15,617 nucleotides of DNA from a virus: UHGV virus genome UHGV-2204636; one strand, written 5' to 3'. Under the pieces are notes generated by a model. That model was not told the origin of the DNA. It was given only the letters and a program-made list of their open reading frames with translations, and did no database searches. Position 1 is the first letter of the stretch. Every line of letters begins with the position of its first letter. The position numbers and the translations under genes were made by a program. Of the stretch, positions 1-15,128 are shown in pieces.

Positions 1-8
1 AAGAAATA

Positions 9-38
9 GGGCTTCCACCTGGGAAGCCCTTTCTTTTT
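9..38. terminator. Rho-independent terminator hairpin (GGGCTTCC-loop-GGAAGCCC) with T-run on + strand; may act bidirectionally downstream of pspG
   Basis: Perfect 8-bp GC-rich inverted repeat at 9-16/22-29 followed by TTTCTTTTT on the + strand; on the minus strand it lies ~130 nt past the pspG stop. Confidence 0.5.
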
Positions 39-165
39 ATAGTTCGGCTGTATGTAGGGTACAGCACGATGAATCTGTTAGAGGCGCAATAGTGACAGAT
101 TTGATTATCAATTCCTATTTTGTTCTAAGGATAAAACCTTAGGTTGTGATCATCCGCACAATCCC

Positions 166-408
166 TTAGTAACGCCAGCGGTCATAACGCTGATATTTCG
201 GCACTTTTGGTGCTTTAATCGCCTTAATAACCCACACCACCGCAATCGCCAGTAGTAACCACGGCAGCAACTTAATCATCAATGCCAGCATACCGCCGAG
301 GAACATAATGGCCGTCGCCACAACCAGCGCGGCGATAATGCCCAGCAACGAAACGCCGGTGACCATCAGCATGACAAAAAAGCCAATCACAAAAAGTAGT
401 TCCAGCAT
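166..408 (-). CDS. pspG: Phage shock protein G, small inner-membrane protein (80 aa)
   Basis: Translation from the internal ATG at 408 (MLELLFVIGFFVMLMVTGVSLLGIIAALVV...KVPKYQRYDRWRY) is two hydrophobic helices and matches my recollection of E. coli PspG; GGGAG Shine-Dalgarno 6 nt upstream; the longer ORF to 618 is an upstream in-frame extension with no coding character. Confidence 0.88.
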   Translation of the reverse strand: MLELLFVIGFFVMLMVTGVSLLGIIAALVVATAIMFLGGMLALMIKLLPWLLLAIAVVWVIKAIKAPKVPKYQRYDRWRY

Positions 409-443
409 GATGCACTCCCAAATATGAAATCTCTTGCTGGCAT

Positions 444-459
444 TACAAGAATCATGCCA
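444..459 (-). promoter_or_regulatory. Candidate sigma54 (-24/-12) promoter of pspG: TGGCATG-N4-TTGTA
   Basis: Minus-strand sequence TGGCATGATTCTTGTA about 35-50 nt upstream of the pspG ATG; pspG is known to be PspF/sigma54-dependent. The -12 element is TTGT rather than the consensus TTGC. Confidence 0.45.
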
Positions 460-480
460 AAAATAATCTATTGATTTAAC

Positions 481-511
481 AGCAAAACGCCCCGCGACGG
501 TGCGCAGGGCG
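481..511 (-). terminator. Rho-independent terminator downstream of dusA
   Basis: Minus-strand hairpin CGCCCTGCG-caccgt-CGCGGGGCG (+ coordinates 488-511) followed by TTTTGCT, about 30 nt after the dusA stop codon. Confidence 0.5.
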
Positions 512-541
512 TGGTGAATTTGACTATTTTTTGGTGAAAAG

Positions 542-1579
542 TTAACGCTTATCCGCCACCAGTTTGAGCGCGTGTTCCAGCACATTAATGTCTGCACCCG
601 CTTTATGGGCATTTTCACTTAAATAACGCCGCCACTGCCGCGCGCCAGGAATACCCTGGAACAAGCCCAACATATGCCGGGTAATATGACCGAGATACGT
701 CCCCTGGCTGAGTTCACGCTCAATGTACGGATACATGGCGCGCACTACCGCCACCGGATCGGCATCGATATCCGAGGAACCAAAGATCTCCCGGTCTACC
801 GCCGCCAGAATACCCGGATTCTGATACGCCTCGCGCCCGACCATCACGCCATCCATATGTTGCAGGTGTGCTTTGGCCTCTTCCAGCGACTTGATACCAC
901 CGTTAATCGACATTGTCAGATGCGGAAAGTCACGCTTCAGTTGATACACACGCGGATAATCGAGCGGCGGGATCTCACGGTTTTCTTTCGGACTTAACCC
1001 CGAAAGCCAGGCTTTACGTGCATGGATGATGAACATCTCACACTCGCCTTTGCCGGAAACGGTGTTGATGAAATCGCAGAGAAATTCATAGCTGTCCTGG
1101 TCGTCGATGCCAATACGCGTTTTCACCGTCACCGGAATCGACACCACATCGCGCATCGCTTTCACGCAGTCGGCAACCAGCTGCGCATTACCCATCAGAC
1201 ACGCACCAAACATGCCGTTCTGCACCCGGTCAGACGGGCAGCCGACATTCAGGTTGATCTCATCATATCCACGCGCTTCTGCCAGCTTCGCACACTGTGC
1301 CAGCGCCGCCGGATCGCTACCGCCGAGTTGCAACGCTACCGGATGTTCTTCTTCACTGTACGCCAGGTAATCACCTTTACCGTGAATAATCGCCCCTGTG
1401 GTCACCATTTCGGTATACAGCAACGTATTGCGGGAAAGCAGACGCAAGAAATAGCGGCAATGTCTGTCCGTCCAGTCGAGCATAGGAGCAATGCTAAACC
1501 GAGAATTCCAGTAAACACCAGTTTTTTCAGGCATCACGCTGGTTTGATTAATTTTTTGTGTTTCATGATTATCGTGCAT
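542..1579 (-). CDS. dusA: tRNA-dihydrouridine synthase A; 5' end probably supplied by the integrated element; alternative start at 1534 (MPEKTG...)
   Basis: 345-aa ORF with the Dus TIM-barrel hallmarks ([31 protein letters not shown]); matches E. coli DusA as I recall it. No strong SD before either candidate start. Confidence 0.9.
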
Positions 1580-1611
1580 TTTTGAACATTTCAGGCTATT
1601 TTTCTCGCGTT

Positions 1612-1648
1612 AGGTTCCCGCACAGGTTCCCACGTTTTATGGGAACCC
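1612..1648. promoter_or_regulatory. Three GGTTCCC(A/G) motifs in the dusA-int divergent intergenic region: two direct copies plus an 8-bp inverted repeat GGTTCCCA-N7-TGGGAACC
   Basis: Motif at 1614-1620, 1626-1632 and inverted at 1641-1647, between the divergent dusA and integrase starts; candidate operator or recombinase/RDF binding sites. Confidence 0.3.
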
Positions 1649-1667
1649 GAAATAACGAGGTCGTGTA

Positions 1668-2765
1668 ATGGCGTACTATAACATAGAGAAACGACTAAAA
1701 TCCGATGGCACACCACGCTATCGCTGTAATGTGATTATCAAAGAAAAAGGTGTTATCACTTACAGGGAAAGCAAAACATTCCCTAAACATGCTCATGCCA
1801 AAACATGGGGCACACAGAAAGTGATGGAATTAGATCTATATGGCATTCCATCATCAAATGCAGTTGACGGACTTACAGTCCGTGACTTACTACACAAATA
1901 TTTAAATGACCCAAATGCCGGAGGTAAAGCAGGCCGTACTAAAAGATATGTGCTGGAACTGCTTATGGATAGTGACATCTCCGCGATCAAACTATCTGAA
2001 CTGACAGAAAATGACGTAATTGAACATTGCAGGCTAAGAAACAACGCTGGTGCAGGTCCTGCAACAGTCAGCCACGATGTTAGTTATCTTGGCAGTGTTC
2101 TGGATGCGGCCAAACCTGTATACGGAATTAATTACACATCAAACCCGGCGAAAAGCGCTCGCCCATATCTACTTAAACTTGGTTTGATTGGTAAATCAAA
2201 CCGTCGTAATCGTAGACCAGCATCTGATGAACTGGACATGCTCATTGCAGGCCTTCAACAACGATCTACTCATAAATGCTCAAAAATTCCGTTCGTTGAT
2301 ATCCTCAAATTTTCTGTATGGTCCTGTATGCGAATCGGAGAAGTATGCCGGTTACGATGGGAAGATCTCGACCAGGAACAAAAATCTATACTCGTAAGAG
2401 ACAGGAAAGATCCACGCAAAAAGGAAGGTAACCACATGAAAGTAGCCTTGCTTGGGGAAGCCTGGGATATCGTCCAACGACAGCCCCAAAAATCGGAATT
2501 CATTTTTCCATATAACAGCACTTCTGTTACTGCGGGATTTCAGAGAGTAAGAAGCAAATTAGGTATTAAGGATCTGCGATACCATGATTTGCGTAGAGAA
2601 GGGGCAAGTCGCTTATTTGAGGCTGGTTTTAGTATTGAGGAAGTCGCCCAAGTTACAGGGCATCGTTCATTAAACGTGCTATGGCAGGTATATACCGAAC
2701 TGTATCCGAAATCTTTACATAATCGTTTTGAAGAGCTCCAAAGGAGCAGAAATAAGACCTCTTGA
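1668..2765 (+). CDS. int: Tyrosine recombinase / phage integrase, in the position of a dusA-associated integrase
   Basis: 365-aa ORF with a GAGG SD; C-terminal catalytic signature (...RYHDLRREGASR... GHRSLNVLWQVY) typical of tyrosine integrases; divergent from and adjacent to the 5' end of dusA. Confidence 0.9.
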   Translation: MAYYNIEKRLKSDGTPRYRCNVIIKEKGVITYRESKTFPKHAHAKTWGTQKVMELDLYGIPSSNAVDGLTVRDLLHKYLNDPNAGGKAGRTKRYVLELLMDSDISAIKLSELTENDVIEHCRLRNNAGAGPATVSHDVSYLGSVLDAAKPVYGINYTSNPAKSARPYLLKLGLIGKSNRRNRRPASDELDMLIAGLQQRSTHKCSKIPFVDILKFSVWSCMRIGEVCRLRWEDLDQEQKSILVRDRKDPRKKEGNHMKVALLGEAWDIVQRQPQKSEFIFPYNSTSVTAGFQRVRSKLGIKDLRYHDLRREGASRLFEAGFSIEEVAQVTGHRSLNVLWQVYTELYPKSLHNRFEELQRSRNKTS

Positions 2766-2811
2766 CACTGTTTATCCATACAGTTAAAAATAATGCTGTA
2801 TACAAACACAG
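2762..2811 (+). promoter_or_regulatory. sigma70-type promoter (TTGACA -35, TAAAAA -10 at 17 bp) with a LexA SOS box CTGTATACAAACACAG
   Basis: Perfect -35 hexamer at 2762-2767 overlapping the int stop; CTGT-N8-ACAG with AT-rich spacer at 2796-2811, between the -10 and the RBS (GGAGGG) of the dinI-like gene. Confidence 0.6.
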
Positions 2812-2826
2812 TATGGAGGGACTTTT

Positions 2827-3075
2827 ATGCGTATTGAAATCTGCATAGCCAAAGAAAAAATGACTAAAATGCCAACCGGTGCTGTGGATGCGTTAAAGGA
2901 AGAATTAACCCGACGCATCAGTAAGCGTTATGACGATGTTGAGGTGTTAGTAAAAGCCACCAGCAATGATGGCCTTTCTGTTACACGCACCGCAGATAAG
3001 GATTCTGCAAAAACTTTTGTTCAGGAGACTCTGAAAGATACCTGGGAATCTGCTGACGAGTGGTTTGTTCACTAA
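2827..3075 (+). CDS. DinI-family damage-inducible protein (prophage DinI-like)
   Basis: 82-aa product [11 protein letters not shown]...[16 protein letters not shown] aligns by eye with E. coli DinI (MRIEVTIAK...ETWESADDWFV); strong SD; preceded by a LexA box. Confidence 0.85.
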
Positions 3076-3328
3076 TAAACACGTAAAATCTGTAACGGCT
3101 GGAAATCATTCAATACTCGCACTATCGAAAGTTCACCAGCCAACCGCAGCGCGTTCTTGCATACGACGTGGCTGCGGTCTCAACTCCGTCCCCCACCAAT
3201 CATGATTGGGCAGTACCAGTACAGCACTAGTAAAAACTGGAAATAAGCAGTCTCAGCAAAATACCGGCCAGACGGTGAGAAGACAAAAAAGATACGCAAA
3301 GTAGCCGCGGCCCTTAGTGACATGAAAT

Positions 3329-3349
3329 CCCGCTATACGGGCTTTTTTG
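3329..3349 (+). terminator. Weak terminator-like hairpin (CCCG-ctata-CGGG) followed by CTTTTTTGT
   Basis: Short 4-bp GC stem with a T6 run, inside the 350-bp non-coding gap downstream of the dinI-like gene. Confidence 0.3.
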
Positions 3350-3423
3350 TATCTGCACACGATTGATTATTAGGTCCGTATAGCTAATAGTGGTCTTAAC
3401 CTACATATAGAATCAGAGACTTT

Positions 3424-4119
3424 ATGAAAAAGGAAATACTCAAGGCTCTTTGCCCTACATGCGGTGGGTTACGTAACTGCACTGTGCATGGGAAGCTAAC
3501 CACTAGCTGGGAGGATTCCCAATATCCAGTTTATGGGTACCATTACCATCACCTACTCCAATGCAATGGCTGTGATACTGTCTTCTATCACCACAACGAA
3601 CACTTCAGTGAGCATACTACCCACGAATATCGTGATGGTGAATTTGTAGAAACGCCTATAGATATGATCACTACCTATCCTGCCGCTGAAACATTTCAAG
3701 CTCCGATATGGTTATCCAAGCTTGAATCAGTTGATCGTCAGCTCTTTCAAATATTTAATGAAATGTATTCTTCATATACTTCTGACCATTTCATTCTTTC
3801 GTCCATCGGTTTACGGACGATTTTTGATCGAACTGCTGAACTGTTACAAATTCACCCCGGTTTGCCGCTTGGTGAAAAAGTTGAAAAATTAAAACAAGAT
3901 GGAGTCATAGGCGACACTGAGGCATGCGTTATATCTTCAGTAATTGATGCAGGAAACGCCGCCGCACATCGCAGTTGGAGCCCGAATAAAAGTGAGTTCG
4001 AACAAATGCTAGAAGCTATAGAAAGTTTTGTCCAAAGAACTATCTTGGGCAAAAAATCACTTGAACATATAACCAAACAACTCCCACCTCGGGTTACAAG
4101 ACCTAAAAATAGTGCATAA
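3424..4119 (+). CDS. Hypothetical protein: N-terminal 4-Cys zinc ribbon (CPTC...CNGC) plus C-terminal DUF4145/HEPN-like helical domain; candidate defence or abortive-infection cargo gene
   Basis: 231-aa ORF, visibly AT-richer than the flanking tail genes; CxxC-N32-CxxC plus a His-rich stretch at the N-terminus; C-terminal LGEKVEKLKQDGVI...IDAGNAAAHRS resembles the conserved core of DUF4145 as I recall it (unverified). Confidence 0.75.
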   Translation: MKKEILKALCPTCGGLRNCTVHGKLTTSWEDSQYPVYGYHYHHLLQCNGCDTVFYHHNEHFSEHTTHEYRDGEFVETPIDMITTYPAAETFQAPIWLSKLESVDRQLFQIFNEMYSSYTSDHFILSSIGLRTIFDRTAELLQIHPGLPLGEKVEKLKQDGVIGDTEACVISSVIDAGNAAAHRSWSPNKSEFEQMLEAIESFVQRTILGKKSLEHITKQLPPRVTRPKNSA

Positions 4120-4145
4120 TCCGCGATCATCAATGTGGCGTAAGG

Positions 4146-4702
4146 CTATGGTTTACTTGCTACAGGGAATTTTTTATACACCGTTGAAATACCCAGATCA
4201 TAAATCAGTGCGACTTGCTGCTGATATATTCCCGATTCAATCAACCTGCCAGCCTGCCCCCATTGTTCTACTGTCAGCTTTGGCTTTCGCCCACCGTTCC
4301 TCCCTTCTTGTCGTGCTGCGGCAAAGCCGCCCTAGTACGTTCGACAATAAACTCTCGCTCCATTTCAGCCAGGGCACCCATCACATGAAAGAAAAAGCGC
4401 CCCATTGGTGTGCTGGTATCAATAGCATCCGTCAGGCTGCGAAAATTAACGCCACGTTCGCGCAACTCTTCCACCAGCACGACAAGATGCCGCATACTGC
4501 GCCCCAGTCGGTCCAGTTTCCAGACCACCAGCGTGTCACCTGCCGATAATGTCCTGAGCAGCTTTTTCAGTCCTGGTCTGTCGGACTTTGTACCGCTTAT
4601 CTTGTCTTCAAAAATCAGCTCACATCCTGCACAGTTCAACGCATTACGTTGTAGATCGGTGTTCTGGTCATTTGTTGATACGCGAACATAGCCAATAAGC
4701 AT
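4146..4702 (-). pseudogene. pin: Serine recombinase / DNA invertase of the Pin/Gin/Hin/Cin family, interrupted by a 1-nt frameshift near 4320-4323
   Basis: Frame A (4322-4702) encodes MLIGYVRVSTNDQNTDLQ...GRFFFHVMGALAEMEREFIVERTRAAL (catalytic domain, Ser in VRVSTNDQ). Frame C (4146-4322) encodes AAARQEGRNGGRKPKLTVEQWGQAGRLIESGIYQQQVALIYDLGISTVYKKFPVASKP (HTH domain), matching e14 Pin. Total length 557 nt is not a multiple of 3. Confidence 0.7.
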
Positions 4703-4731
4703 GATAGCTCCTCCTGACAAAAACAGGAACG

Positions 4732-5103
4732 ATGCCATTTGCGCGCTATTTCTGCATTTTCATAAACGTTGGTTTGGGAGAAGCGGCAAAACGGAATGTG
4801 GGAACAGGGAAAAATCAGATACCTGATATGTCAGCTTATTCATCAGGATCTGGCTGGCAAAAATTGCCTGATGGTTCAATTGAACAGTGGGGAAGAATTA
4901 ATTTCCCGTATAACGCCGCGGCGGTATCTACAAATGTGACTTTCACCATTCCTTTTACGCAGGAGCCAGACGTAGTGATTGTATATGACGGCGGTTTTGG
5001 TGGTGGGAATATGTGGGGCGCAACTAACTGGACGAAAACAGGTTTCGTTGCTCATTGTAACTATGGCTTTGAAGGTGGAGCCTTCTACGCGAAAGGGCGT
5101 TAA
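4732..5103 (+). CDS. Silent alternative tail-fibre C-terminal cassette (Sv'-like); the ATG at 4732 is probably fortuitous, the cassette is expressed only after inversion
   Basis: ORF shares the VGLGE junction with the expressed fibre gene at the crossover site, then diverges (AAKRNVGTGKNQ...); no independent N-terminal fibre domain. Confidence 0.55.
   Translation: MPFARYFCIFINVGLGEAAKRNVGTGKNQIPDMSAYSSGSGWQKLPDGSIEQWGRINFPYNAAAVSTNVTFTIPFTQEPDVVIVYDGGFGGGNMWGATNWTKTGFVAHCNYGFEGGAFYAKGR
4757..4782. other. Invertase crossover site (gix/pix-like 26-bp imperfect palindrome), invertase-proximal copy
   Basis: TTTTCATAAACG-TT-GGTTTGGGAGAA; its reverse complement shares TTCTCCCAAACCAA with the site at 6573-6598; resembles hix/gix half-sites. 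Confidence 0.55.
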
Positions 5104-5105
5104 TT

Positions 5106-5546
5106 ATGAAATATTTGTATGTTGATAATCTGGCGTACCCTTATGCCCTCCAGTCTGTTTACGCTGCAAAAGGCCAATGGCCCGAAGGTAAAGGCGTGGA
5201 TATAGACGAAGCTATTTTCAGGGAATATTTCCATGATACGCCGCCTGACGGTAAGTACAGAATTACCGGAGACGATGGAATGCCAGCATGGGCAGATGTT
5301 CCACCGCCAACACGTGAAGAACAAATTGCATCAGCCGAAACTAAAAAGCAGCAATTGATTAATCAGGCCAACGATTATATGAACAGTAGACAATGGGCTG
5401 GTAAAGCGGCTATTGGTCGTCTGAAAGGTGAGGAACTGGCGCAATATAATTTGTGGCTGGATTATCTGGACGCACTGGAGCTGGTCGATACTTCCAGTGC
5501 ACCAGATATTGAATGGCCTACTCCTCCGGCAGTTCAGGCCAGATGA
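5106..5546 (+). CDS. Tail fibre assembly protein (Tfa / Mu U'-like), partner of the silent cassette
   Basis: 146-aa product with the conserved Tfa C-terminal motif (...NLWLDYLDALELVDTSSAPDIEWPTPP); immediately follows the cassette ORF. Confidence 0.85.
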   Translation: MKYLYVDNLAYPYALQSVYAAKGQWPEGKGVDIDEAIFREYFHDTPPDGKYRITGDDGMPAWADVPPPTREEQIASAETKKQQLINQANDYMNSRQWAGKAAIGRLKGEELAQYNLWLDYLDALELVDTSSAPDIEWPTPPAVQAR

Positions 5547-6120
5547 CATCCGGCGCGGTGCTGGTATCTGTTGCCGTCACCGCGTCAATGTAATCCAGCA
5601 CAGCGTTAAGTCGGGTTGTTTCTGCCTGCGTCAACTTCCGTCCGGCCTGTAATTTCAGCTGAATCAGACTAATGGAAGCCATTGCTGCATCAATCAGTGA
5701 CTGGCGCTGTGCTTCTGCTGCGTCTACTGCGGCACTATGCTGTGCCTCAGTATCCGTCACCCATTTCTCACCATCCCATTTATCGTATGGCGTTAACGGG
5801 GCGATAGTGGTTGTATTTTCGGGGTAATCACCCAGAGCTGTGATTTCTTTGGCGTCTCCCGTTTCGGTGTTATAGACGATTTCACCGCGATGGTCTGGCA
5901 CATATTCCCATGAGTTTAAATCTGCCGAACGGCAGATTGCATAACCAGCCTTATGTATACCAGGTTCATCCAGACAGGAATATGCCGGGATACCAACACC
6001 AACGGCAAGATATTCATTTGAAGTGGAAATATATTCCCGAGTTTCACCATCATAGCTATAGACGGTAATATCCCCCGCCTTCGTGGCAATAAGCTCGCTA
6101 TTTAATACAGCGTTATCCAT
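5518..6120 (-). CDS. Tail fibre assembly protein (Tfa / Mu U-like), partner of the expressed fibre
   Basis: 200-aa product with C-terminal ...LNAVLDYIDAVTATDTSTAPDVIWPELPEE motif; convergent with and overlapping the U'-like gene by 29 nt. Confidence 0.85.
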   Translation of the reverse strand: MDNAVLNSELIATKAGDITVYSYDGETREYISTSNEYLAVGVGIPAYSCLDEPGIHKAGYAICRSADLNSWEYVPDHRGEIVYNTETGDAKEITALGDYPENTTTIAPLTPYDKWDGEKWVTDTEAQHSAAVDAAEAQRQSLIDAAMASISLIQLKLQAGRKLTQAETTRLNAVLDYIDAVTATDTSTAPDVIWPELPEE

Positions 6121-6878
6121 TATTCAGCCCTCACGATAAAGTTAAATGCAATATTTCGCGCACGTGTTTCCGTTGATGTTCTGGCAACAAGTGATGCATC
6201 AAAATAATAATTCGCCTGTTTATATGTACCACCTATCGCAATTGGTGTGAGATTTGGTTGCACTATTGAAGAGGTAAATGCGCCGAAAGTATTATTATTT
6301 GTCCCCGTGGTCATATCAAAAAAGCTACCTGTAATATTTTGCAGCGTATCGCTCTGAGCACTCAATAACGCTCGCCCACTGTCCACTCCACGCCCATCAT
6401 CCCAGCCACGAATAAACTCACCCCGCAGATCTGGCAGCACAAGACCGGGGTAAACCAGTGCCAGCTTCGGATAATTTTTAGCTGCAAATGGAGCGCCGTT
6501 ACATTTCAGCCATCCTGTTGGTGGAGTGGCTAAAGGCCACGGAACAGGCACACCAACGGGTAATGCCGAACCTTCTCCCAAACCAAGATTTCCGAGAGCC
6601 GTTTTCACGGTGCCATCCGATTTGATATCGCCAAACGGATTTGAGCGACTCAGTAACAGCGCGTTTAGTGCTGTTAATAACTGGTTTTTTTTAGAAGGAT
6701 CAACATTAATACCGGCAGCGTTCAGGACAGTAATAAGCTCCGACTGCGCATCTCTGACAGCCCCCTGCACGTTATTCAGATGCTCAGCATCAACAATGGT
6801 CCCCAGCTCACCTGTGAGCGGATTACCATCATGGAAAAGATTATCCGGCGTCTGCACCGGTGGCATTAAGGGCCGCAT
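6120..6878 (-). CDS. Tail fibre protein (constant N-terminus about 6586-6878 plus currently expressed variable C-terminus 6120-6585)
   Basis: 252-aa ORF; start overlaps the stop of the upstream gene (TAATG); contains the crossover site at the GLGE codons. Confidence 0.85.
6573..6598. other. Invertase crossover site (26-bp imperfect palindrome) inside the tail fibre gene
   Basis: TTCTCCCAAACC-AA-GATTTCCGAGAG; inverted relative to the site at 4757-4782. Confidence 0.55.
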
Positions 6879-7450
6879 TATTCATTCTCCTGATATGCGA
6901 AGTAGCAAAATGTATGGGCTGGTTTGAGATCACGGAAGACGTCTTCAATAATCGGATCACCAAACGTTGTCAGGCGCTCACCTGCAGCTGAACTGCCTGA
7001 GCGAAAGCGATAGGATTGAGTTCCTGAGTTCTGAATATTGACGCGCCAGACCCAGATAATGTCTTCAACCCAGAGGCGATCACCGGCGCGGCCAACTCCC
7101 GCCCTGAAAGGTTGCGGTTCATCAATTGTGATGATGTAGCCAAGGTTGCTTGCCAACTGAGTAAAGTACGGAATACTGAGACCACCGACTTCAGCCAGTT
7201 TAGCCAGTACACGCTGCTGGCGTTGCTGGTATGTCGCACCTTCAGCAGGAGTAAGGTCCAGGACGCGTTCCCAGTCATACAAAAGGCTGCGTGCATAAAA
7301 TGGAGTAACTCCACCTTCAACAAGCCCTGCAGACGCATCGAGAGTCTCAAAAACACCTGATTCAGATCGCAATGATGCATCAAGCAGAGGCTGGCCCGGG
7401 CTGTACGAAACAAGTGGCAGCAGACGATTTAACAGCGTGAAGTAGCTCAT
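6878..7450 (-). CDS. Phage tail/baseplate protein, Mu gp48 / YmfQ (DUF2313)-like
   Basis: 190-aa ORF translationally coupled between the baseplate J-like gene and the fibre gene, the position occupied by gp48/YmfQ in Mu- and e14-type tails. Confidence 0.75.
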
Positions 7451-8514
7451 AGCAGCTCTACCTCAACGTTTCCTAATTTGAGCCATTCGACTTTCGTGGC
7501 ATCGATTATCGGTTGAATATTTGCCGATGGTGTAACGATGTCATAGTCGGTAATACCCGGAATTAGAGAAATCAATGTCCCCGCCTGGCTGCGAATAAAA
7601 GCCACTCCAGGCTCTCGGCGCGAGTCATCGTCCTCCAGCGTTCCGGCGACAGCCTGTTTGGCTGCTGCGAGGGTGATGCCCTCCAGTGATACCTTCACGA
7701 GGACGTCAAATGTACGGATGACAGGTATGAGCACCAGCGTGTTTTTTGCTGTAACAGGCCGGACATCGTCAATGTGAGCCTGCACCCTGTCGATCACATC
7801 CTGAGATGGCAGCCCACCTGCAGACGTGATCACAACATCAACGGTACCCGGCCCCCGCCGCAAAGGGTAAACATATGCGGCGGATACGCCTGATACCTCA
7901 AGCGCCCAGCGTTTGTAATCATATTTATTGCCGCCTGCAGGAGGTCGGCGGATGATTTCAAGCAGACGAGCAAGCAGCTCTGCATCCGTTTCCTCATCTG
8001 TTCCGCCAGTCATCAGGCCTACTGTCACTGTGCTGTCAAACCCATCAGGTGTTGTGGTCAGTGTGGCCGATGTGACGGAAGTGGTGTTACCAGTGGTTCC
8101 GGCCAGAGAAGACACTGCGTTTACCGATGATTTTCCATCTGACCCGACAATAATATCTTCGGTTGTTGTCCACGAAACACTGTCGCGTTTGAACACAAGA
8201 CCGGCAGCGGCCACCGCTCCTGGTTCGCCGGTAAACGTGGCAGGCCCGGAGGCGCTGTTGGCTGCTTTTTTGCTTAAACCACGTAAACGGGCGTGCAGAT
8301 AGAGGAATTCCGAATCAGCAGTATCCGGAAAGATCTGACGGACTATCCATCCCTGATGCTGATAAAGCCCCTCGGCAACACTGGCTACACTCGATGCCCG
8401 GATGTACCAGTCGCTGTCCGGGCCCAGCGTATCATCTGACAACTGCAGGAGATTTTTGATATCCCGCAGAATGTCAGTGCGTATTTGCGCGGCATTTTTG
8501 GTAATGAATGGCAT
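7447..8514 (-). CDS. Baseplate J-like protein (Mu gp47 / P2 gpJ family)
   Basis: 355-aa ORF; position and size fit baseplate J; 4-nt overlap with the downstream gene. Confidence 0.8.
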   Translation of the reverse strand: MPFITKNAAQIRTDILRDIKNLLQLSDDTLGPDSDWYIRASSVASVAEGLYQHQGWIVRQIFPDTADSEFLYLHARLRGLSKKAANSASGPATFTGEPGAVAAAGLVFKRDSVSWTTTEDIIVGSDGKSSVNAVSSLAGTTGNTTSVTSATLTTTPDGFDSTVTVGLMTGGTDEETDAELLARLLEIIRRPPAGGNKYDYKRWALEVSGVSAAYVYPLRRGPGTVDVVITSAGGLPSQDVIDRVQAHIDDVRPVTAKNTLVLIPVIRTFDVLVKVSLEGITLAAAKQAVAGTLEDDDSRREPGVAFIRSQAGTLISLIPGITDYDIVTPSANIQPIIDATKVEWLKLGNVEVELL

Positions 8515-8864
8515 CAGCTGACCTTAACCGGATATTTCCAGGTCTGCGGCGTTCCGCTCGCAGACGTGACGGTGATATGAAGCAGCATCCAGCCTTTTTG
8601 CCAGTGCTCTGCAGTAACGGAAATGGACTGGGCGCGACCGTCGTCAATAATCGGTTGCAGGGCCTGCCGCGAATACTGCACCGCGAGTTGTTGAACGCGA
8701 GACACATCCTTTTCGCGGCGGAGTGTATGCAAAAGAGAGCCCAGAGTTGGATCAGCCCACCATGAGCCAAGGGGCGTCATCAGCCGTAAGTAGACGGCAT
8801 TCGCTAAAGAGTCTGAGCTGTCGCCGGTATAATCGCCGGTCGTTGGATCAATCAACATTTCCAT
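8514..8864 (-). CDS. Baseplate protein, Mu gp46 / GP46-family (gpW/gp25-like)
   Basis: 116-aa ORF directly upstream of and overlapping the baseplate J-like gene; start region lies in a hairpin, so the exact start (8864 or 8858) is uncertain. Confidence 0.7.
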   Translation of the reverse strand: MEMLIDPTTGDYTGDSSDSLANAVYLRLMTPLGSWWADPTLGSLLHTLRREKDVSRVQQLAVQYSRQALQPIIDDGRAQSISVTAEHWQKGWMLLHITVTSASGTPQTWKYPVKVS

Positions 8865-8953
8865 GCCGTAATACTACCGGCATGGAAATTTAAATTATCG
8901 GTGAAGGGGTTCAGTGGGTATTGCTTTTGAAGGAGAACTTACGTTACCACAAA

Positions 8954-9559
8954 TTACATTTGCTGATTAGGTTTCTGCGTTGTGCCTGCATCACCGCCGT
9001 GGTCGTGGTCGTGACCGTCATAAGTCTCACGCATGGTGTTCAGCGTAGACTTGCCGTCAGCGACTTCATTACTGCCTTTCAGCAATGGTGTATCAAAATC
9101 TGCCCGCTCTGAGGCTGTGGTTTTATACGTTTTGGTATTAACAATATGTTGTTCGGTATTCACCGTGTGCTTTTTAGTATTAACGATATATTCATCGCAG
9201 TTTACTTCAATTATTTTTCCGCGCTTCAGAATAATGTTGCTTCCTTCATCCGAATAAATGGCAAGCTCACCACTTTTCAGGCTCTTTAGCCTGTATGCAG
9301 CGTGTTCCGTGGCAATCACCACGCTATGACTGGTGCGCCCGTTAAGCGGGAGCACAATGGCTTTAGTCCCCCTGGGCGGGTTGGATGTAAAACCGTACTG
9401 CTGAAACATCTCCACATCCTGCAAAGACTCAGTGGCCAGACCTTTACCCTGAATGGTCTGAATATCACCACCGCTGTTAACCCTTATTAAAACGCCCCTG
9501 AAGGCCTTTCTTATACGGTTTAACGCCGTGTTAATACGAGAGTCAATTTTGTTCCACAT
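8954..9559 (-). CDS. Baseplate assembly protein V / spike (Mu gp45-like)
   Basis: 201-aa ORF following the hub gene; His/Asp-rich C-terminal tip (DGHDHDHGGD) typical of spike proteins. Confidence 0.75.
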   Translation of the reverse strand: MWNKIDSRINTALNRIRKAFRGVLIRVNSGGDIQTIQGKGLATESLQDVEMFQQYGFTSNPPRGTKAIVLPLNGRTSHSVVIATEHAAYRLKSLKSGELAIYSDEGSNIILKRGKIIEVNCDEYIVNTKKHTVNTEQHIVNTKTYKTTASERADFDTPLLKGSNEVADGKSTLNTMRETYDGHDHDHGGDAGTTQKPNQQM

Positions 9560-10760
9560 CGATAATCTCCAGCTCTTTATTTACTTTGGCGCGACGCTTA
9601 CGTGATTTGCGTTTTTTCGGATAAGCATCCGGTATCCATATTCCATCCTCTTTGAGCCGCAGGGTGGTAATGGTGTTGTCTGGACGACCACCTGAAAACT
9701 CTCTTCCCATGAGGAAGTAAATGTCATCAATGCCATGTGGCTCGCTTCGGACACGAATACGCTGGCCCGGTTGCCATAACTGACCGTTCTCCATGCGATG
9801 GCCTTTAACAATTACTGTCAGATCAAACCCGTTCAGACGGGCGTCAGCCATGGCCTTTCTCGCGCGATAATCAACCTGCGCCTGATTATCAGCATCACCA
9901 GCAACCATAATCTGCGGACGATAGAAAGGTACGGTACTGTCGCGAACGGTACTACGTAAGCCATGAAAGCCATTCTCTGCAGAGCCGGTGCTGTCATAAA
10001 TTGCGTCGGCATCATCATCGTCTTCAGCCTCAGCGCTCTGATCATCAACGTCAATAACTTCCAGTCTTCCTGACTTTTTCCCCTGGCCGTGTCCCTGTGC
10101 CAGCATTGTCAGTTCAGAGAACGCACCGGTAATGGATGACCGGTCACTGAGATCGAGGACATTATTTCCCCGACCGTCACGATTCAGAACAAGCGTGGCT
10201 ACAGGGTCTTTTGTGTAATCCGGCCCTCCAATTACCAGCGTGCCATCTGGCTCAAACCATGGCCATAACCCGCGTGCAGCAGCTGCACGCTCAAGGGTAT
10301 CCCACGCACGTTCTCCGGGCTCCACGCTGACCTTGTCATTACGCAGGGATGACTCAGCCTCGATGCGGATGTTCGTTATCCCCAGCGGTCTGACAACCTG
10401 GGCGATCACCTCTTCAAGACTGAGCTGGCGGGAGGTAAAAACGGGTGAAGCGCAGTCAACAAGCACGGCTGCACCATCGCGACCGGAAAGAGATAAAGAA
10501 ACCTGCTGACGGGATACCCGGCGCTGAACCACATCCACCCGACCGGACATGACAACATCATTACCCACCCTGACCAGCACCGGCACACCACGTTTAATGG
10601 CCGGAGGGAAAATACCATCAGGCAGCCCAAGCGTTACGCTCCATGCATCGGAGGGGATCAGAAAATCGGAGTCAATCTGATAGCGGCTCCATGCACTATG
10701 GATTTTGCCATCAATAACCAGGCTCACTGTATTCTGCGAATCTTTATCTTGAGTAGGCAT
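9543..10760 (-). CDS. Baseplate hub / tail protein (Mu gp44, phage late control D family)
   Basis: 405-aa ORF overlapping its neighbours by 17 nt on both sides; conserved position between the DNA-circularisation protein and gpV-like genes. Confidence 0.8.
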   Translation of the reverse strand: MPTQDKDSQNTVSLVIDGKIHSAWSRYQIDSDFLIPSDAWSVTLGLPDGIFPPAIKRGVPVLVRVGNDVVMSGRVDVVQRRVSRQQVSLSLSGRDGAAVLVDCASPVFTSRQLSLEEVIAQVVRPLGITNIRIEAESSLRNDKVSVEPGERAWDTLERAAAARGLWPWFEPDGTLVIGGPDYTKDPVATLVLNRDGRGNNVLDLSDRSSITGAFSELTMLAQGHGQGKKSGRLEVIDVDDQSAEAEDDDDADAIYDSTGSAENGFHGLRSTVRDSTVPFYRPQIMVAGDADNQAQVDYRARKAMADARLNGFDLTVIVKGHRMENGQLWQPGQRIRVRSEPHGIDDIYFLMGREFSGGRPDNTITTLRLKEDGIWIPDAYPKKRKSRKRRAKVNKELEIIDVEQN

Positions 10761-12075
10761 TCAGAACGTCACCGGCTTTGATATTGTTAGGATTACGTAG
10801 TGTCGGATTGAGACGCAGCAACTCGGCGGCGCGCGTGTAGTCCTCATACCACAGGTGGGCCAGCAAATGCAGGTTTGTGTCGGACAATACCACTCGCGTA
10901 GTCAGTGGTGGTCTGCTGGTAATAACCGCTGAGCCCAGCTCCTGAACGGTCAGGGCGATATCCTTGAGACCTTCAACCACGGGTTGCCAGGTCACGCCAC
11001 CCGGTGTTTCACCGGCGCTCACGTTTTGCGTATCGGCAGCAAAGGTGTCCCGCGTCTGGTCGATTGCCGTCTGAATGGCCGTCCTGGTGTCGTTGGTGAT
11101 CTGCTCAATATCGACTGGAGACAGAATATCGCTGATGCTGCTGTCACTGAGTATGTCGGAAGCATCAAGCGCCAGCTGGATTGCAACCTGGATTTTTACC
11201 GCCGTTACCAGCTCAGTAATATCCGAGGTTGATGAGCCTGCCGGAACAGCAACAGCAACAGTCTTTTGCCCTGTCACTATCTGCTGAGGTAATGCGGCCA
11301 CATCCTGCAGATTGTTACGGCCATTCTTCCAGTCGGCCATCACGATGCCCGCTGTACCGGAAACGTCTGAGGACTGTGAATAGCTTCCTGGGTTATTACT
11401 GACACTTGATTTGGACTGAAGCGACGTCAGACTCAGCGCACTCTGCAGGTCATTCATGAACGATTTTGGGTAATTAACAAAATCCGAGGTGGTACTGACA
11501 AATCCCGTCAGTTCCCCCTTAAGCACGGTCACCATATTCAGCGTCGTGGTTGCCAGCGATTTCGCTTTTTTCATCCACTTTTTCGCTGTACGCAGAGGCG
11601 AGAGAATATTGTCGATGGCCGTCTGGGCTTTCTCCAGAGCGGATTGCGCCTGGTTGAAAACGATATCAGCTTTCGACAGCGGGAAATCGCTGCCAAAGAA
11701 AGGCAGATTAAGTCCCCCCTGGATAAAGACCACTTCGACAACGCAGTAATCAACGTTCTCCGCTTCATGCGATGCCTGATACTCAATGCACTGCATGCCC
11801 GTCATGGAGCCGAAAACGGGATGAATTAATTCTGCGCTACCGCGAGTATCCAGTGCGGCCAGAAACGCCTGCAGCCGCACATCATAATCATCACCCCAGA
11901 AAAGGACTGTCATCCGCAGGTTACGAGGCTTGCGGCCAAGATCATCAACATCACCACCGTCGACATAGGGATACTCATACGTCGCAATGTCGCGACTGGC
12001 GCTGTCACGGGTATTAACCACATCAAAGCGGACGCCCCTGAATGAGGCATCCTGTAATGAATCTTCCCAGCTCAC
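10744..12075 (-). CDS. DNA circularisation protein (Mu gp43 / N-like)
   Basis: 443-aa ORF immediately downstream of the tape measure gene (4-nt overlap), the canonical position in Mu-like tails. Confidence 0.75.
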   Translation of the reverse strand: MSWEDSLQDASFRGVRFDVVNTRDSASRDIATYEYPYVDGGDVDDLGRKPRNLRMTVLFWGDDYDVRLQAFLAALDTRGSAELIHPVFGSMTGMQCIEYQASHEAENVDYCVVEVVFIQGGLNLPFFGSDFPLSKADIVFNQAQSALEKAQTAIDNILSPLRTAKKWMKKAKSLATTTLNMVTVLKGELTGFVSTTSDFVNYPKSFMNDLQSALSLTSLQSKSSVSNNPGSYSQSSDVSGTAGIVMADWKNGRNNLQDVAALPQQIVTGQKTVAVAVPAGSSTSDITELVTAVKIQVAIQLALDASDILSDSSISDILSPVDIEQITNDTRTAIQTAIDQTRDTFAADTQNVSAGETPGGVTWQPVVEGLKDIALTVQELGSAVITSRPPLTTRVVLSDTNLHLLAHLWYEDYTRAAELLRLNPTLRNPNNIKAGDVLNAYSR

Positions 12076-14213
12076 TGCGGGCCTCCTGTTGAGCCGCGAA
12101 CGGATTGTTCGCCGTTGTATTCATTAACAGCTGATGCAATTTCACGTCCGTCTAATACCAGCTTTGTGGTGAGGTTAATGGGCTGTGATTTTTGTTGCTG
12201 TTGGGGCAAAAGATAAGACGGCACGCCTGTTGTTGCTGGTGTGTTTTGCCCCATCGTGGCCGGAGAACTCCACCATGATTTGACCTCATCCACGACATCC
12301 AGCAATCCGGGGCGGGCTTTTACTGCATCCAGCATGCGTGCTGACTCACTGGAATAGTTGTCAACCTTAAGCCGCGCACGTGCATCAGCATCACCTCGCT
12401 CAACATGAACAAGTGGCGCATCCTGCATACCCTGATAGAGGGCCAGTGGGGCTAATACCTTGCCAGCTCCGCCACGAATAACGGACCAGGCACGCCCAAG
12501 AGCAGATCCCCCTGCAGTCGGCACTCCACCGCCAGGAGAACCAGGCATTTTTATTCCGCCGCCAGTAAGGAAGTTGAGCCCGGCAAAAGCTACAGCCGCC
12601 GCTGTCATGGCTTTAATGCCCGTGGTGGCACCTGAAATAGCAGTTGTTAATTCAGGATATTCTTTAGCGTAATCAGAAAGTTTTGACGTCAAATCACCAT
12701 ATAAATCGGCGACAGGTTTCATTGCATCCTGCTCAGAGAACATTTTCTCTGATTCAAATTGTTGTGATTTAAAATCATTAGTTGATGAGATCACATCATA
12801 TGAAGCAGCACCAGCGCCAACGGAATCACGCGTTCCTGAAATCTGCTCCTTAATGAAGTCTTTTTTCATTATGCTTGTTTTTAGTGCGGTACTGGCCTGC
12901 TGGTCAGCAACTATTTTCGATGTAATTGAGGAAACTATAATATCCAGTGAGGCAAGGATATCTTTCTCCTTGTCCGTCCCTTTAAATTTCGTAGCCTGAG
13001 CCCGTAATTTCTTCACTCGTGGGTCGGCTGAAACAATACCTGATACTGCATTGGTGAATGCATCAGAAGTATTTACGCCTGAAAGTCGCTGGTCAGCCAT
13101 ATAATCAGCATAGGCAAGCATCCTTCCGTCTTTAGTCCTGAATCTTTTATTTTTTAACGCATTCTGAGTGTCAGCACTGGTGTATTTATCAAGCAGGTTA
13201 TTAACGTTTGTTGATGCAGCGCTATTATCACCTGCTGTTTCAGCGTTAGCCTGTAGCATTGCGAGAATTACATCCAAATCTTTTAACCCTGACATACCTA
13301 CAGCGTTAGCTTTTGTCATGGTTAAAGGTAATGAACCAGCCATATCAGCAAGTTCATATTTACCATTCTCACCAGACCTGATGGTTTTATCAAATACCGC
13401 TGGCAAATCCTCAGCCTTTATATCAAAGTTCTTAATTGCACCAATAGCAATACGAGCAAGGTCATTAGGGTTTGCACCTGAGGCCGTAGCATAACGAGTA
13501 ATATCCGGCAGGATTTTTAATGCCGTTTTATCATCAAGACCACCTGCGAAAAGCGAATTAATAGTTTCCTGTGCAGCCTCCGGTGTTCCACCGCCATAAC
13601 GAACAGCCCCACGGATTGCATTATTGATCTCAGGTATTTTCTTAATACGGTCTGGCGCTGAGAGGTTGTTATAAGCGGTATTTGCAATCTCAGCATTACG
13701 CCGTTCGTAAGCCATCTGACGCTGAACCGGGTCTTTTATAATCATACCCGCAGCAGTTAACCCACCGGCTACTGCTGCCACGGTTGAACCTGCAGCACGG
13801 AATCGCTGCATGCGCGTCATTGAGTCATTGACGCCGCCAAGCTCAGTTCGCAGCGCTTTGACCCTGTCAGTCATGGCCCTGAAAGCCCGGTTCTGCTCAT
13901 TTGCGGACAGCATACCTGTGCGGGTAAGGCGATTATAGGCCGCCATGGTCTGCTGTATTTCGCGCTGTATTTCGCGCTCTGAGCGAATGCCAAGAGTTGC
14001 TCGCGCCGAACTGGCGCGACGGTATTCCTCAATCAGAGAACGGGAGGCACGAATCGCTGTGGTTGAGTTCTGCTGACGGGATTTCGCCAGCTCATCATCG
14101 GTTTTTTGCGCCGCTTTGGTATCCCGGCTGATGCCCTGGAGTGCCTGTTTAAGCACTTTGGAGCCGGTATCACGGGCAAGCAGCTGCAGCGCCAGTTGTA
14201 AGTTACGCGCCAT
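12072..14213 (-). CDS. Tail tape measure protein
   Basis: 713-aa ORF, Ala/Gly/Gln-rich and predicted helical, with a GGAG SD; preceded by the chaperone gene and its frameshift extension. Confidence 0.85.
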   Translation of the reverse strand: MARNLQLALQLLARDTGSKVLKQALQGISRDTKAAQKTDDELAKSRQQNSTTAIRASRSLIEEYRRASSARATLGIRSEREIQREIQQTMAAYNRLTRTGMLSANEQNRAFRAMTDRVKALRTELGGVNDSMTRMQRFRAAGSTVAAVAGGLTAAGMIIKDPVQRQMAYERRNAEIANTAYNNLSAPDRIKKIPEINNAIRGAVRYGGGTPEAAQETINSLFAGGLDDKTALKILPDITRYATASGANPNDLARIAIGAIKNFDIKAEDLPAVFDKTIRSGENGKYELADMAGSLPLTMTKANAVGMSGLKDLDVILAMLQANAETAGDNSAASTNVNNLLDKYTSADTQNALKNKRFRTKDGRMLAYADYMADQRLSGVNTSDAFTNAVSGIVSADPRVKKLRAQATKFKGTDKEKDILASLDIIVSSITSKIVADQQASTALKTSIMKKDFIKEQISGTRDSVGAGAASYDVISSTNDFKSQQFESEKMFSEQDAMKPVADLYGDLTSKLSDYAKEYPELTTAISGATTGIKAMTAAAVAFAGLNFLTGGGIKMPGSPGGGVPTAGGSALGRAWSVIRGGAGKVLAPLALYQGMQDAPLVHVERGDADARARLKVDNYSSESARMLDAVKARPGLLDVVDEVKSWWSSPATMGQNTPATTGVPSYLLPQQQQKSQPINLTTKLVLDGREIASAVNEYNGEQSVRGSTGGPQ

Positions 14214-14216
14214 GGA

Positions 14217-14740
14217 TTATCTCCGTTTGCCGACTTTCTTCCGGCGTTGCGATTTGACAGTGCGGGTTGTGCGGGTGGTAGTTTGCCCGGTTTTCTTTCC
14301 ATGTAACCGGGCAAGTGCTTCGGTGTAGCCGTCGAGTTCCGTTCGGGTCATGCTTCCGATTTGTTGTTCACTGATACCGTATCGCCCGAGGGCGAGGACG
14401 AGGGTTCGGTACCCGGTGAGCTTTTGTTCAAATCCATCCGCTTTTTTTTAATGGCTTCAATCTGAGCATCGATGAGATCGAAATCATCATCATTCAGCTC
14501 GTTAAGGAGCAGCTCCGCCGTAATTTCTTCCTTTGGCACATCTCCGAGGGCAGTAATCGCACACGCCATTACCGCAACACGGTAATACATGTTTGCGGCT
14601 GCGCCTTCGGTAGTGCCGCAGGCTTCATCGGTTGCCCGCAGCGCTTCAATGGTATCGCTCACCACAGGCAGCCTGACGGCAAAGTCAAAATGGACTTTAT
14701 CACCGTATTTAACGCCATATAAAAGCTGCTGCTTTTCCAT
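14217..14740 (-). CDS. Tail assembly chaperone, -1 frameshift-extended isoform (G-T / E+E' analogue)
   Basis: After the slippery site the -1 frame stays open for ~76 codons (ADGFEQKLTGYRTLVLALGRYGISEQQIGSMTRTELDGYTEALARLHGKK...KRR) and stops at 14217-14219, one codon before the tape measure ATG. Confidence 0.5.
14348..14740 (-). CDS. Tail assembly chaperone (lambda G / P2 E / Mu gp41 analogue), zero-frame product
   Basis: 130-aa acidic ORF between the tube and tape measure genes; contains an A AAA AAG slippery heptamer near its 3' end. Confidence 0.75.
   Translation of the reverse strand: MEKQQLLYGVKYGDKVHFDFAVRLPVVSDTIEALRATDEACGTTEGAAANMYYRVAVMACAITALGDVPKEEITAELLLNELNDDDFDLIDAQIEAIKKKRMDLNKSSPGTEPSSSPSGDTVSVNNKSEA
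14441..14447 (-). promoter_or_regulatory. Programmed -1 ribosomal frameshift slippery heptamer A AAA AAG
   Basis: Minus strand reads GCC ATT AAA AAA AAG CGG in the chaperone frame (dnaX-type heptamer). Confidence 0.5.
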
Positions 14741-15115: not shown

Positions 15116-15128
15116 TCTGGTTTACTCC

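Follow-up and report, generated by a model that had tools for sequence, protein, structure and literature searches.

The window, a 15,617-nucleotide stretch of the virus genome UHGV-2204636, very probably carries a Din-family, e14 P-segment-type switch of tail fiber host range, located in a prophage at the Escherichia coli dusA gene and left with a cis invertase that is predicted to be dead. Two alternative fiber C termini and two convergent Tfa assembly genes lie between its recombination sites, as a preliminary description of the sequence had proposed, and are seen both in the open reading frames (ORFs) and in their Pfam matches. Judged by Pfam, by sequence matches to the PDB, and by near-identical annotated relatives, the family assignments of the cassette genes are unambiguous. 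The features are compiled in Table 1.

Table 1. Coordinates of the cassette and its neighboring genes in the window
Feature	Position	Strand	Remarks
Pin-type serine DNA invertase pseudogene	4146..4702	-	1-bp deletion between 4328 and 4329 (GGGCGGGC -> GGGCGGC)
Residual invertase open frame, 142 aa	4274..4702	-	Resolvase domain only (PF00239, E=5e-49); Ser9 present
pixL, invertase-proximal 26-bp recombination site	4757..4782	.	Outer half 4757-4768, core TT 4769-4770, inner half 4771-4782
Invertible segment	4771..6584	.	1816 bp core to core; 1788 bp between repeat arms
Silent alternative fiber C terminus, Gp53-like_C	4783..5103	+	PF21882; architectural counterpart of K-12 StfE2
Tfa146, assembly gene of silent tip, TfaP-like	5106..5546	+	PF02413, E=4e-32
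Tfa200, assembly gene of expressed tip, TfaE-like	5518..6120	-	PF02413, E=1e-32
Expressed variable fiber C terminus, Collar domain, StfE-like	6120..6572	-	PF07484, E=6e-12; fused to constant part
pixR, 26-bp recombination site within fiber gene	6573..6598	.	Inner half 6573-6584, core AA 6585-6586, outer half 6587-6598
Constant fiber N terminus (97 codons), baseplate anchor	6587..6878	-	Homologous to e14 StfP N terminus
Mu gp48-like baseplate protein	6878..7450	-	PF10076; first gene of the Mu-like tail module reaching the window's right end

Recombination sites, fiber tips, and assembly genes

In a repeat search, the pair 4757-4782 / 6573-6598 ranked as the best inverted repeat between positions 3500 and 8500, and the coordinates proposed for two inverted imperfect palindromes of 26 bp are exact. 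Read on the strand that places the inner half-site first, pixL is TTCTCCCAAACC AA CGTTTATGAAAA and pixR is TTCTCCCAAACC AA GATTTCCGAGAG. The two sites have 20 of 26 bases in common, including 14 contiguous ones that comprise the inner half-site and the 2-bp core. Each consists of 12-bp halves round a core that matches its partner (TT and AA), as is typical of Din sites, and on reading the sequence, 8 of 12 bases match between the two halves of either site. The shared 14-mer has two exact copies in the window, one per strand, against 0.16 expected by chance; this excess and the identity to known pix sites rule out a chance repeat. All 26 bases of pixL are identical in the pixL of K-12 e14 and in the dusA-prophage loci L014-L017 and L019. 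For pixR, the agreement with e14 is 24 of 26; its inner half and core equal those of e14, and its outer half, GATTTCCGAGAG, is of the Mu-like type and the same as at locus L010. The published e14 repeat (TTGGTTTGGGAGAAGG / CCTTCTCCCAAACCAA; Kirigo et al. 2025, PMC12529663) is present at both ends, with 16/16 matches for the right arm and 15/16 for the left.

The motif GLGE, at which the two fiber variants had been described as fused, occupies aa 99-102 of the 252-aa fiber and aa 14-17 of the 123-aa ORF 4732-5103, whose 13-aa leader MPFARYFCIFINV reads across pixL and whose Gp53-like_C domain spans aa 44-113. Both fiber frames indeed run through GLGE, but the point of fusion is the AA/TT crossover core ahead of this motif and not the motif's end. 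GLGE is encoded by the inner half-site, and the core (6585-6586 and 4769-4770) falls in the Leu/Val codon directly before it; hence, the variants diverge 12 bp past the core. An in-silico flip leaves the fiber in frame and changes its length from 252 to 208 aa, and all four ORFs of the segment are intact. Of the first 98 residues of the constant part, 94-96 are identical in the Mu-like prophages L004-L013 and L028, and in Mu-like relatives with other cassettes, the fibers part directly after ...TAL.NL.

Among PDB sequences, the expressed tip matches a phage short tail fiber (9cuy, E=9e-24) and the tip of T4 gp37 (2xgf, E=7e-16). Its assembly protein Tfa200 is 91% identical to K-12 TfaE, and the exact protein is present in P2-like and other prophages. 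The C-terminal 78 aa of Tfa146 are 73% identical to K-12 TfaP. Both assembly genes are convergent and overlap by 29 nt. Searches with the DUF4145 protein, the 123-aa ORF, and DinI gave no defence match in PADLOC and no specific family in NCBIfam.

In the proposed mechanism, the late tail operon would be transcribed leftward on the minus strand, from the constant fiber N terminus through pixR into whichever variable tip faces it and on to the assembly chaperone of this tip. The current orientation would thereby yield the 252-aa fiber with the Collar-domain tip together with Tfa200, and recombination at the AA/TT cores would invert the 1.8 kb to give the 208-aa fiber with the gp53-like tip together with Tfa146. 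A promoter and terminator scan of positions 4000-7000 found nothing over shuffle expectation that would account for the expression of either tip.

Invertase pseudogene and orientation of the segment

A frameshift in the adjacent invertase gene is evident from translation in three frames and from alignment to K-12 pinE and to an intact homologue from E. coli. Catalytic and HTH domains, which a Din-family invertase combines in one open frame, are separated herein, with HTH_7 out of frame at about 4146-4330 (PF02796, E=2e-11). Restoring one G results in a protein of 185 aa, with identities of 84.8% to PinE and 76% to Mu Gin. By its sequence, the gene is a Din-family member by descent but a pseudogene. 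That it is functional after all, the deletion being a sequencing error or the G run allowing a bypass through frameshifting or transcriptional slippage, is highly improbable. The deletion does lie within a short G run (GGGCGGGC), and the HTH frame downstream is still open and conserved; however, the sequence around the deletion is devoid of a canonical slippery heptamer, and the exact 142-aa product recurs in 1614 blocks of a public collection (NCBI, ENA, and other assemblies), including the closed chromosome CP138423.1. Since the identical truncated product is found in many independent assemblies, a read error is ruled out.

The invertase genes of the Gin, Hin, and Cin systems contain, toward their 5′ end, a Fis-bound recombinational enhancer that acts in cis. 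In the window, the first 200 nt of the gene are nearly invariant compared with pinE, and a Fis-like 15-mer, GAAGACAAGATAAGC, stands at the position of GAAGATAAATTAAGC in gin. A simple scan of the window, pinE, gin, and H1 for G-N13-C motifs with an A/T-rich center and a spacing of ~48 bp gave no clean pair of Fis sites. The 1-bp deletion would remove the DNA-binding domain of the invertase, and with it site binding and the contact to Fis, which in Hin is made through this domain (PMC3798978), and would render inversion in cis impossible. The term invertible, applied to the cassette from the start, is thus justified for its sites, genes, and reading frame but not in the sense of autonomous inversion, the cis invertase being frameshifted and deprived of its HTH_7 domain. 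With a dead cis invertase, any switching must be in trans; the cassette would either be locked or be switched only by another Din invertase of the same cell.

Relatives carry the segment in both orientations. In K-12 e14 and in phage SKA5, it is inverted with respect to the window, with collinear flanks. Among 5426 complete E. coli genomes, the invertase-side junction has the window orientation in 52 cases and is flipped in 579; these numbers represent junction types over many different prophages, many K-12 derivatives included, and are no count of switching events. P2-like prophages have the same cassette at 99.4-100% identity, in one orientation in L020/L022 and in the other in L021/L024/L025, and no resolvase gene was found within 8 kb of these loci.

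It is conceivable, although short of probable, that the cassette has been stuck with its Collar tip ON ever since the invertase was frameshifted, the differences in orientation then reflecting history or wholesale replacement of cassettes. An invertase without a DNA-binding domain is consistent with such a relic, as is a frameshift allele old enough to be very widespread; furthermore, cassettes at loci with this allele vary in sequence (79-96% identity) and not in orientation alone. On the other hand, both 26-bp sites are intact and the same as the working e14 sites over inner half and core, none of the four segment ORFs is damaged, and the exact cassette occurs in both orientations in prophages without an adjoining invertase. 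In addition, Din invertases work in trans (PMC12529663). These points argue against a locked relic.

Comparison with e14, Mu, and related systems

Gene order and content of the window match ymfQ-stfP-tfaP-tfaE-stfE-pinE of e14. As in e14, a constant part of ~97 aa lies outside the segment, two C termini and two convergent Tfa genes lie inside, and both fusions are in frame. The segment measures 1788 bp between the repeat arms in the window and 1797 bp in e14, the two fiber lengths are 252 and 208 aa compared with 263 and 209 aa, and the leaders of the silent ORF are alike (MPFARYFCIFINVGLGE in the window and MPFACYFFIFINVGLGE in e14). The architecture shared by Mu G, P1 C, and e14, to which the cassette had been likened, is hence present, specifically in its e14 form given the fully identical pixL and the same gene order, but the Mu G system proper is not. 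Likewise, the constant part of ~98 aa is shorter than Mu Sc (about 169 aa), as had been remarked, but it is not unusual, for GLGE lies at aa 98-101 in e14 StfP. Since the length of this part and the position of GLGE agree with StfP almost to the residue, a short constant part is the e14 norm and not a departure.

Unlike e14, the window has a frameshifted invertase; its segment is also turned round compared with the K-12 reference, so that the Collar/StfE-type tip is ON. Between the gp53-like tip and the K-12 StfP tip, identity is no more than ~36%. Both the constant N terminus and the tail module belong to the Mu-like transposable-phage lineage, and the fiber is ~33% identical overall to e14 StfP. 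Moreover, the prophage site is dusA in the window and icd in e14. For e14, it was shown that the P segment is inverted in trans by PinQ of prophage Qin (Kirigo et al. 2025, PMC12529663). StfE2 blocks phage adsorption, and the short ORF beside the invertase, composed of the leader and the gp53-like domain, can have a phenotype of its own (PMC12529663). In its current orientation, the window encodes a StfE2-like short ORF (4732-5103, 123 aa), but the gp53-like domain is divergent, with 35.6% identity to in-silico K-12 StfE2.

The Mu G/Gin system follows a common logic: a constant N terminus outside, two oppositely oriented tips inside, each with an assembly gene of its own, and an invertase adjoining. 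The upstream tail module of the window is also Mu-like (gp36-gp48 Pfam families). The Mu G segment proper, which has gix-type sites, is, however, ruled out by site sequence, Sc length, and segment size, with 509 nt (about 169 aa) for Sc and 3059 bp for the G segment compared with 97 aa and 1.8 kb in the window. Even with 2 mismatches allowed, the pix 14-mer has no match in the Mu region, and Mu itself has no DNA similarity to the window. P1 and p15B contain long inverted repeats or multiple segments, whereas in the window there is one segment only, bounded by minimal 26-bp sites. According to Sandmeier and co-workers in the 1990s, the P1 C/Cin and p15B Min-type systems reportedly exchange fiber modules. 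An identical cassette in P2-like prophages that ends at the 26-bp sites fits this view.

Mosaic flanks and possible implications for fiber exchange

On sequence evidence, the locus is a three-way mosaic of a dusA prophage, a cassette of the P2-like type, and a Mu-like tail module, jointed at the two sites. Positions 1-4783 are 99.9% identical to the dusA prophage L015. The segment matches the cassette of the P2-like prophage L020 at ~100% identity and those of L021-L025 at 99.4-99.7%, the identity stopping at both sites; one further myovirus-type prophage also contains a cassette with 99.4-100% identity. From 6586 to 15617, the window is 97-100% identical to Mu-like prophages; the exact protein of 6878..7450 recurs in Mu-like prophages whose insertion flanks are random, and together with the head genes Portal_Mu, Mu_F, and gpT. 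The change of affiliation maps within 15 bp, TTCTCCCAAACCAAG, that is, inner half-site and core. Since left flank, segment, and right flank each have different closest relatives, the 26-bp sites would mark the limits of horizontally exchanged modules.

An exact record of the 252-aa fiber was not found, the 76-nt hybrid junction is absent from three contig collections (genome, metagenome, and viral), and the exact junction of Mu-like constant region and cassette occurs in no complete E. coli genome. Because junction and fiber are found nowhere else, the flank combination may be an assembly artefact: if the source genome held the same 1.8-kb cassette in at least two prophages (dusA, Mu-like, and perhaps P2-like), the assembler could have crossed over between them. 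This is conceivable, although short of probable, and each real prophage would still hold an ordinary invertible cassette. The breakpoints fall at the ends of the cassette, which recurs in different prophage types with 99.4-100% identity. The nearest sequence, contig L031, is 100% identical over 6533-15617 and ends 55 nt inside the shared sequence, 40 nt past pixR; contig L032 ends 29 nt inside it, and both would thus stop as expected from k-mer assemblers that run into a repeat. However, inversion of the segment in the sampled population would lead one to expect contig breaks at the cassette just as much. Furthermore, Mu-like prophages naturally bear e14-type Collar cassettes at the same fusion point, as exemplified by L028 with a fiber of 250 aa, and so the right-hand junction is biologically ordinary.

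A real recombination of co-resident prophages at their pix sites by a trans invertase, through inter-prophage inversion or recombinase-mediated cassette exchange, is unlikely by a slight further degree. It would explain the change of affiliation within inner half-site and core and the hybrid nature of pixR, with its e14-type inner half and Mu-like outer half. It is also consistent with the dusA prophages L015 and L016, whose flanks are 99.9-100% identical and whose different cassettes are swapped exactly between the sites despite a dead invertase in both. Yet homologous recombination within the conserved flanks could have the same outcome, as could a donor whose flanks are identical; the junction reciprocal to the hybrid one was not observed, and a crossover during assembly accounts for the same pattern. 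Din invertases are also known from the Hin system to strongly prefer sites in cis on one supercoiled domain (PMC3798978). Only tentatively, and as an unlikely generalization, might pix sites be regarded as portable docking points at which cassettes and flanks are exchanged in trans between unrelated prophages (e14/SfV-like, Mu-like, and P2-like) in one cell, including those whose local invertase is dead. The window would then represent the left arm of a dusA prophage joined via a P2-like-type cassette to a transposable Mu-like tail module, which would imply that a Din invertase brought about a chromosomal rearrangement between prophages.

As a fiber switch, the e14-type segment offers nothing new; it is a textbook host-range cassette of the e14/Mu type. 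It does allow annotation of a stfP2-like fiber, tfaE-like and tfaP-like genes, a stfE2-like ORF, and a pin pseudogene, and it presents a very common E. coli dusA prophage with a dead invertase beside intact sites and cassettes. That near-identical dusA prophages contain different whole cassettes, exchanged precisely at the sites, points to trans invertases and site-delimited module exchange, which may be a routine route of fiber-tip turnover. The small ORF of the StfE2 type that e14 makes in one orientation has been credited with anti-phage activity (PMC12529663). By analogy, cassettes locked in that state, as in the window, may be kept to the benefit of the host.

Architecture of the cassette

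The locus shows the architecture of the e14 P segment, the invertible fibre cassette of the Escherichia coli K-12 prophage e14 (invertase pinE), at single-residue resolution. Two 26-bp sites, pixL next to the invertase gene and pixR inside the fibre gene, enclose four elements, namely two convergent Tfa genes and two alternative fibre C termini (tips); the preliminary description had given both the site positions and this content correctly. The sites share 14 bp (inner half and core), differ in their outer halves, and agree in 20 of 26 positions in total. They form the best-ranked inverted repeat of the region in a repeat search, and no further copy of the 14-mer exists beyond these two, which are on opposite strands (0.16 occurrences expected). 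When 4771-6584 is flipped in silico, the fibre frame stays open and the protein changes from 252 to 208 aa.

Features of the window (site sequences with the inner half first)
Feature	Position	Strand	Remark
pspG and most of dusA	1-1476		100% identity to many E. coli chromosomes
Integrase	1668-2765		97-98% identity to mEp460/SKA5-type int region
dinI	2827-3075		97-98% identity to mEp460/SKA5-type int region
DUF4145 gene	3424-4119
Serine invertase gene	4146-4702	-
pixL	4757-4782		TTCTCCCAAACC-AA-CGTTTATGAAAA
Silent Gp53-like_C fibre tip	4783-5103	+
Tfa146	5106-5546	+
Tfa200	5518-6120	-
Collar-domain tip	6120-6572	-	now joined to the constant part
pixR	6573-6598		TTCTCCCAAACC-AA-GATTTCCGAGAG
Fibre gene	6120-6878	-
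Mu gp48-like gene	6878-7450	-
Mu-like gp47, gp46, gp45, gp44, DNA-circulation, and tape-measure genes	to right end	-

Compared with K-12 e14, annotated as ymfQ-stfP-tfaP-tfaE-stfE-pinE, pixL is identical in 26 of 26 positions and pixR in 24 of 26, and the e14 repeat of Kirigo et al. 2025 (TTGGTTTGGGAGAAGG / CCTTCTCCCAAACCAA; PMC12529663) is found at both segment ends. GLGE occupies aa 98-101 in K-12 StfP and aa 99-102 in the window fibre, Tfa200 is 91% identical to TfaE, and the silent ORF has the short leader MPFACYFFIFINVGLGE in K-12 and MPFARYFCIFINVGLGE in the window. The constant fibre N terminus had been described as only ~98 aa and much shorter than Mu S; the number holds (Mu Sc has 509 nt, ~169 aa), but such a length is usual for e14-type cassettes. 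The ORF 4732-5103 (123 aa), which adjoins the invertase in the present orientation, consists of a 13-aa leader, GLGE, and a gp53-like domain. Architecturally, it corresponds to K-12 StfE2, reported in 2025 to block T2 adsorption (PMC12529663), with only ~36% identity between the gp53-like domains.

The divergence of the two fibres had been placed at the end of GLGE and equated with the core, which is not borne out. The inner half-site itself codes for GLGE (GGT TTG GGA GAA), and the 2-bp core falls in the preceding codon, which is Leu (CTT) or Val (GTT). The fibres of ten Mu-like prophages with the constant N terminus of the window (94-96 of the first 98 residues are the same) split right after ...TAL(E/G/K)NL and continue with GLGE, GLNE, QLER, HLEE, GLGD, GLRA, or GIKD. 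Hence, the real module boundary is the core and not the end of GLGE. In three other Mu-like loci (L027, L029, and L030; identical tape-measure protein, fibre start at 17336), similarity to the constant part stops near window position 6772 (~aa 35); matches are limited to 50 of the first 98 residues, and what follows downstream bears no relation to the window. In the Mu-like lineage, even the "constant" region is thus mosaic.

From what is known of the family, the tail late operon would read via the constant part into whichever tip faces it and on into the chaperone of that tip, and the silent tip would have neither its own promoter nor a proper start. Recombination would require a Din invertase dimer per site and a Fis-bound enhancer. 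As in gin, the latter probably lies within the invertase gene, in its 5' part, which is highly conserved; a motif scan of the invertase 5' region could not pin it down.

Truncated invertase and inversion in relatives

The adjacent serine invertase gene is dead, which the preliminary description had missed. A 1-base deletion between 4328 and 4329 (GGGCGGGC to GGGCGGC) becomes apparent when the gene is aligned with pinE and an intact E. coli homologue. The open frame stops after 142 aa and contains the Resolvase domain only, with the HTH_7 domain coded downstream and out of frame; re-inserting the missing base yields a 185-aa protein with 84.8% identity to PinE. A read error was rejected since 1614 public-collection blocks list the identical 142-aa product; all six places displayed show the order dusA, int, dinI, DUF4145, truncated invertase. 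The DNA-binding domain of an invertase recognizes the sites. In Hin, this domain is also the surface contacted by Fis (PMC3798978), and hence the truncated protein is presumably inactive. With the cis invertase dead, any inversion of this segment has to be performed by a different Din invertase of the same cell, for which PinQ of prophage Qin, inverting the e14 segment in trans, is a precedent (PMC12529663).

Compared with the collinear flanks, the segment is flipped in phage SKA5 and K-12 e14. With a 1.2-kb probe for the invertase-side junction and a match over ≥80% of its length, 52 complete E. coli genomes have the arrangement of the window and 579 the flipped one; K-12 relatives will make up many of the latter, and the figures count junction types, not events. 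P2-like prophages hold the same cassette (99.4-100% identity) with the gp53-like tip ON (L020 and L022) or the Collar tip ON (L021, L024, and L025). Inversion of the e14 segment in clonal cultures is documented (PMC4272514; PMC12529663). Relatives are thus found in both orientations rather than one, and the assignment as an invertible cassette stands.

In these five P2-like prophages, the cassette lies at ~7520-9365, with no resolvase gene within 8 kb of it. Relative to V-W-J-I-H and gpD/ogr, they have the sheath-tube-E-T-U block in inverted orientation, differing from the canonical P2 arrangement; possibly, a second and larger rearrangement was anchored at the cassette.

Mosaic joints at the sites

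The prophage sits in the 5' end of dusA, its DNA starting at ~1476 and continuing rightwards. Similarity of the mEp460/SKA5 type begins at 1476 within the dusA coding region (start codon 1579), and hence the phage provides a replacement dusA 5' end; the same 123-nt dus fragment adjoins the integrase in phage SKA5. The DUF4145 gene is convergent with the invertase gene and accompanies invertase and cassette in two prophage contexts: dusA prophages (L014-L019) and a bio/ybhB-region prophage (L001, 94.6% identical to and collinear with window 3083-6160). Its product has no match in PADLOC or NCBIfam. The tape-measure gene (12072-14213) contains a variable internal block, as 12662-13747 lacks DNA similarity in most Mu-like relatives (L004-L007, L009, and L013), where the protein has 713, 717, 722, or 746 aa.

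The window is a three-way mosaic with joints at the sites, which had been overlooked. With dusA prophages such as L015, in which an e14/SfV-like tail (YmfQ, 194 aa) follows the cassette, the left flank (1-4783) shares 99.9% identity. The segment shows ~100% identity to the cassette that P2-like L020 carries and matches that of dusA prophage L016 in its left half only. From 6586 (core) rightwards, 97-100% identity is shared with Mu-like transposable prophages in their tail module. These prophages have Portal_Mu, Mu_F, and gpT head genes, host flanks differing at every locus, and an intact 186-aa invertase of their own. In a base-level alignment, the affiliation changes within the 15-bp TTCTCCCAAACCAAG; accordingly, pixR is a hybrid, its inner half being of the e14 type and its outer half Mu-like and the same as in L010. 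A change exactly at the 26-bp sites is also seen between L015 and L016, from two E. coli isolates: their flanks are 99.9-100% identical and both invertases are frameshifted, whereas the cassettes (~8060-9946) are in opposite orientation with 79% identity.

The mosaic may reflect a real, trans-catalysed site-specific exchange between co-resident prophages, homologous exchange, or an assembly path that ran into the repeated 1.8-kb cassette in one prophage and continued out of it in a second; the last of these has to be taken seriously. No record exists of the hybrid fibre protein, none of three contig collections contains the 76-nt junction, and no complete E. coli genome spans it. Furthermore, L031, the sole contig 100% identical to the right part of the window, ends 55 nt inside the shared sequence and contig L032 29 nt, distances that may correspond to k-mer overlaps. 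Against an assembly join, Mu-like prophages with Collar-type e14 cassettes joined at the same point exist (L028), and hence the fibre of the window is itself biologically ordinary.

L031 (ending at window 6533) and L032 (99.6% identity, ending at 6559) are independent assemblies of the same Mu-like prophage, and their breaks inside the cassette suggest that it is multi-copy or orientation-heterogeneous in those samples.

The locus belongs to the e14/Pin class, as correctly spotted at the outset, an already well-understood kind of element, herein with a pseudogenized invertase and with flanks in an unusual combination that may be an artefact. The most interesting remaining reading would be a site-delimited, trans-catalysed swapping between unrelated prophages, affecting both fibre cassettes and flanks.
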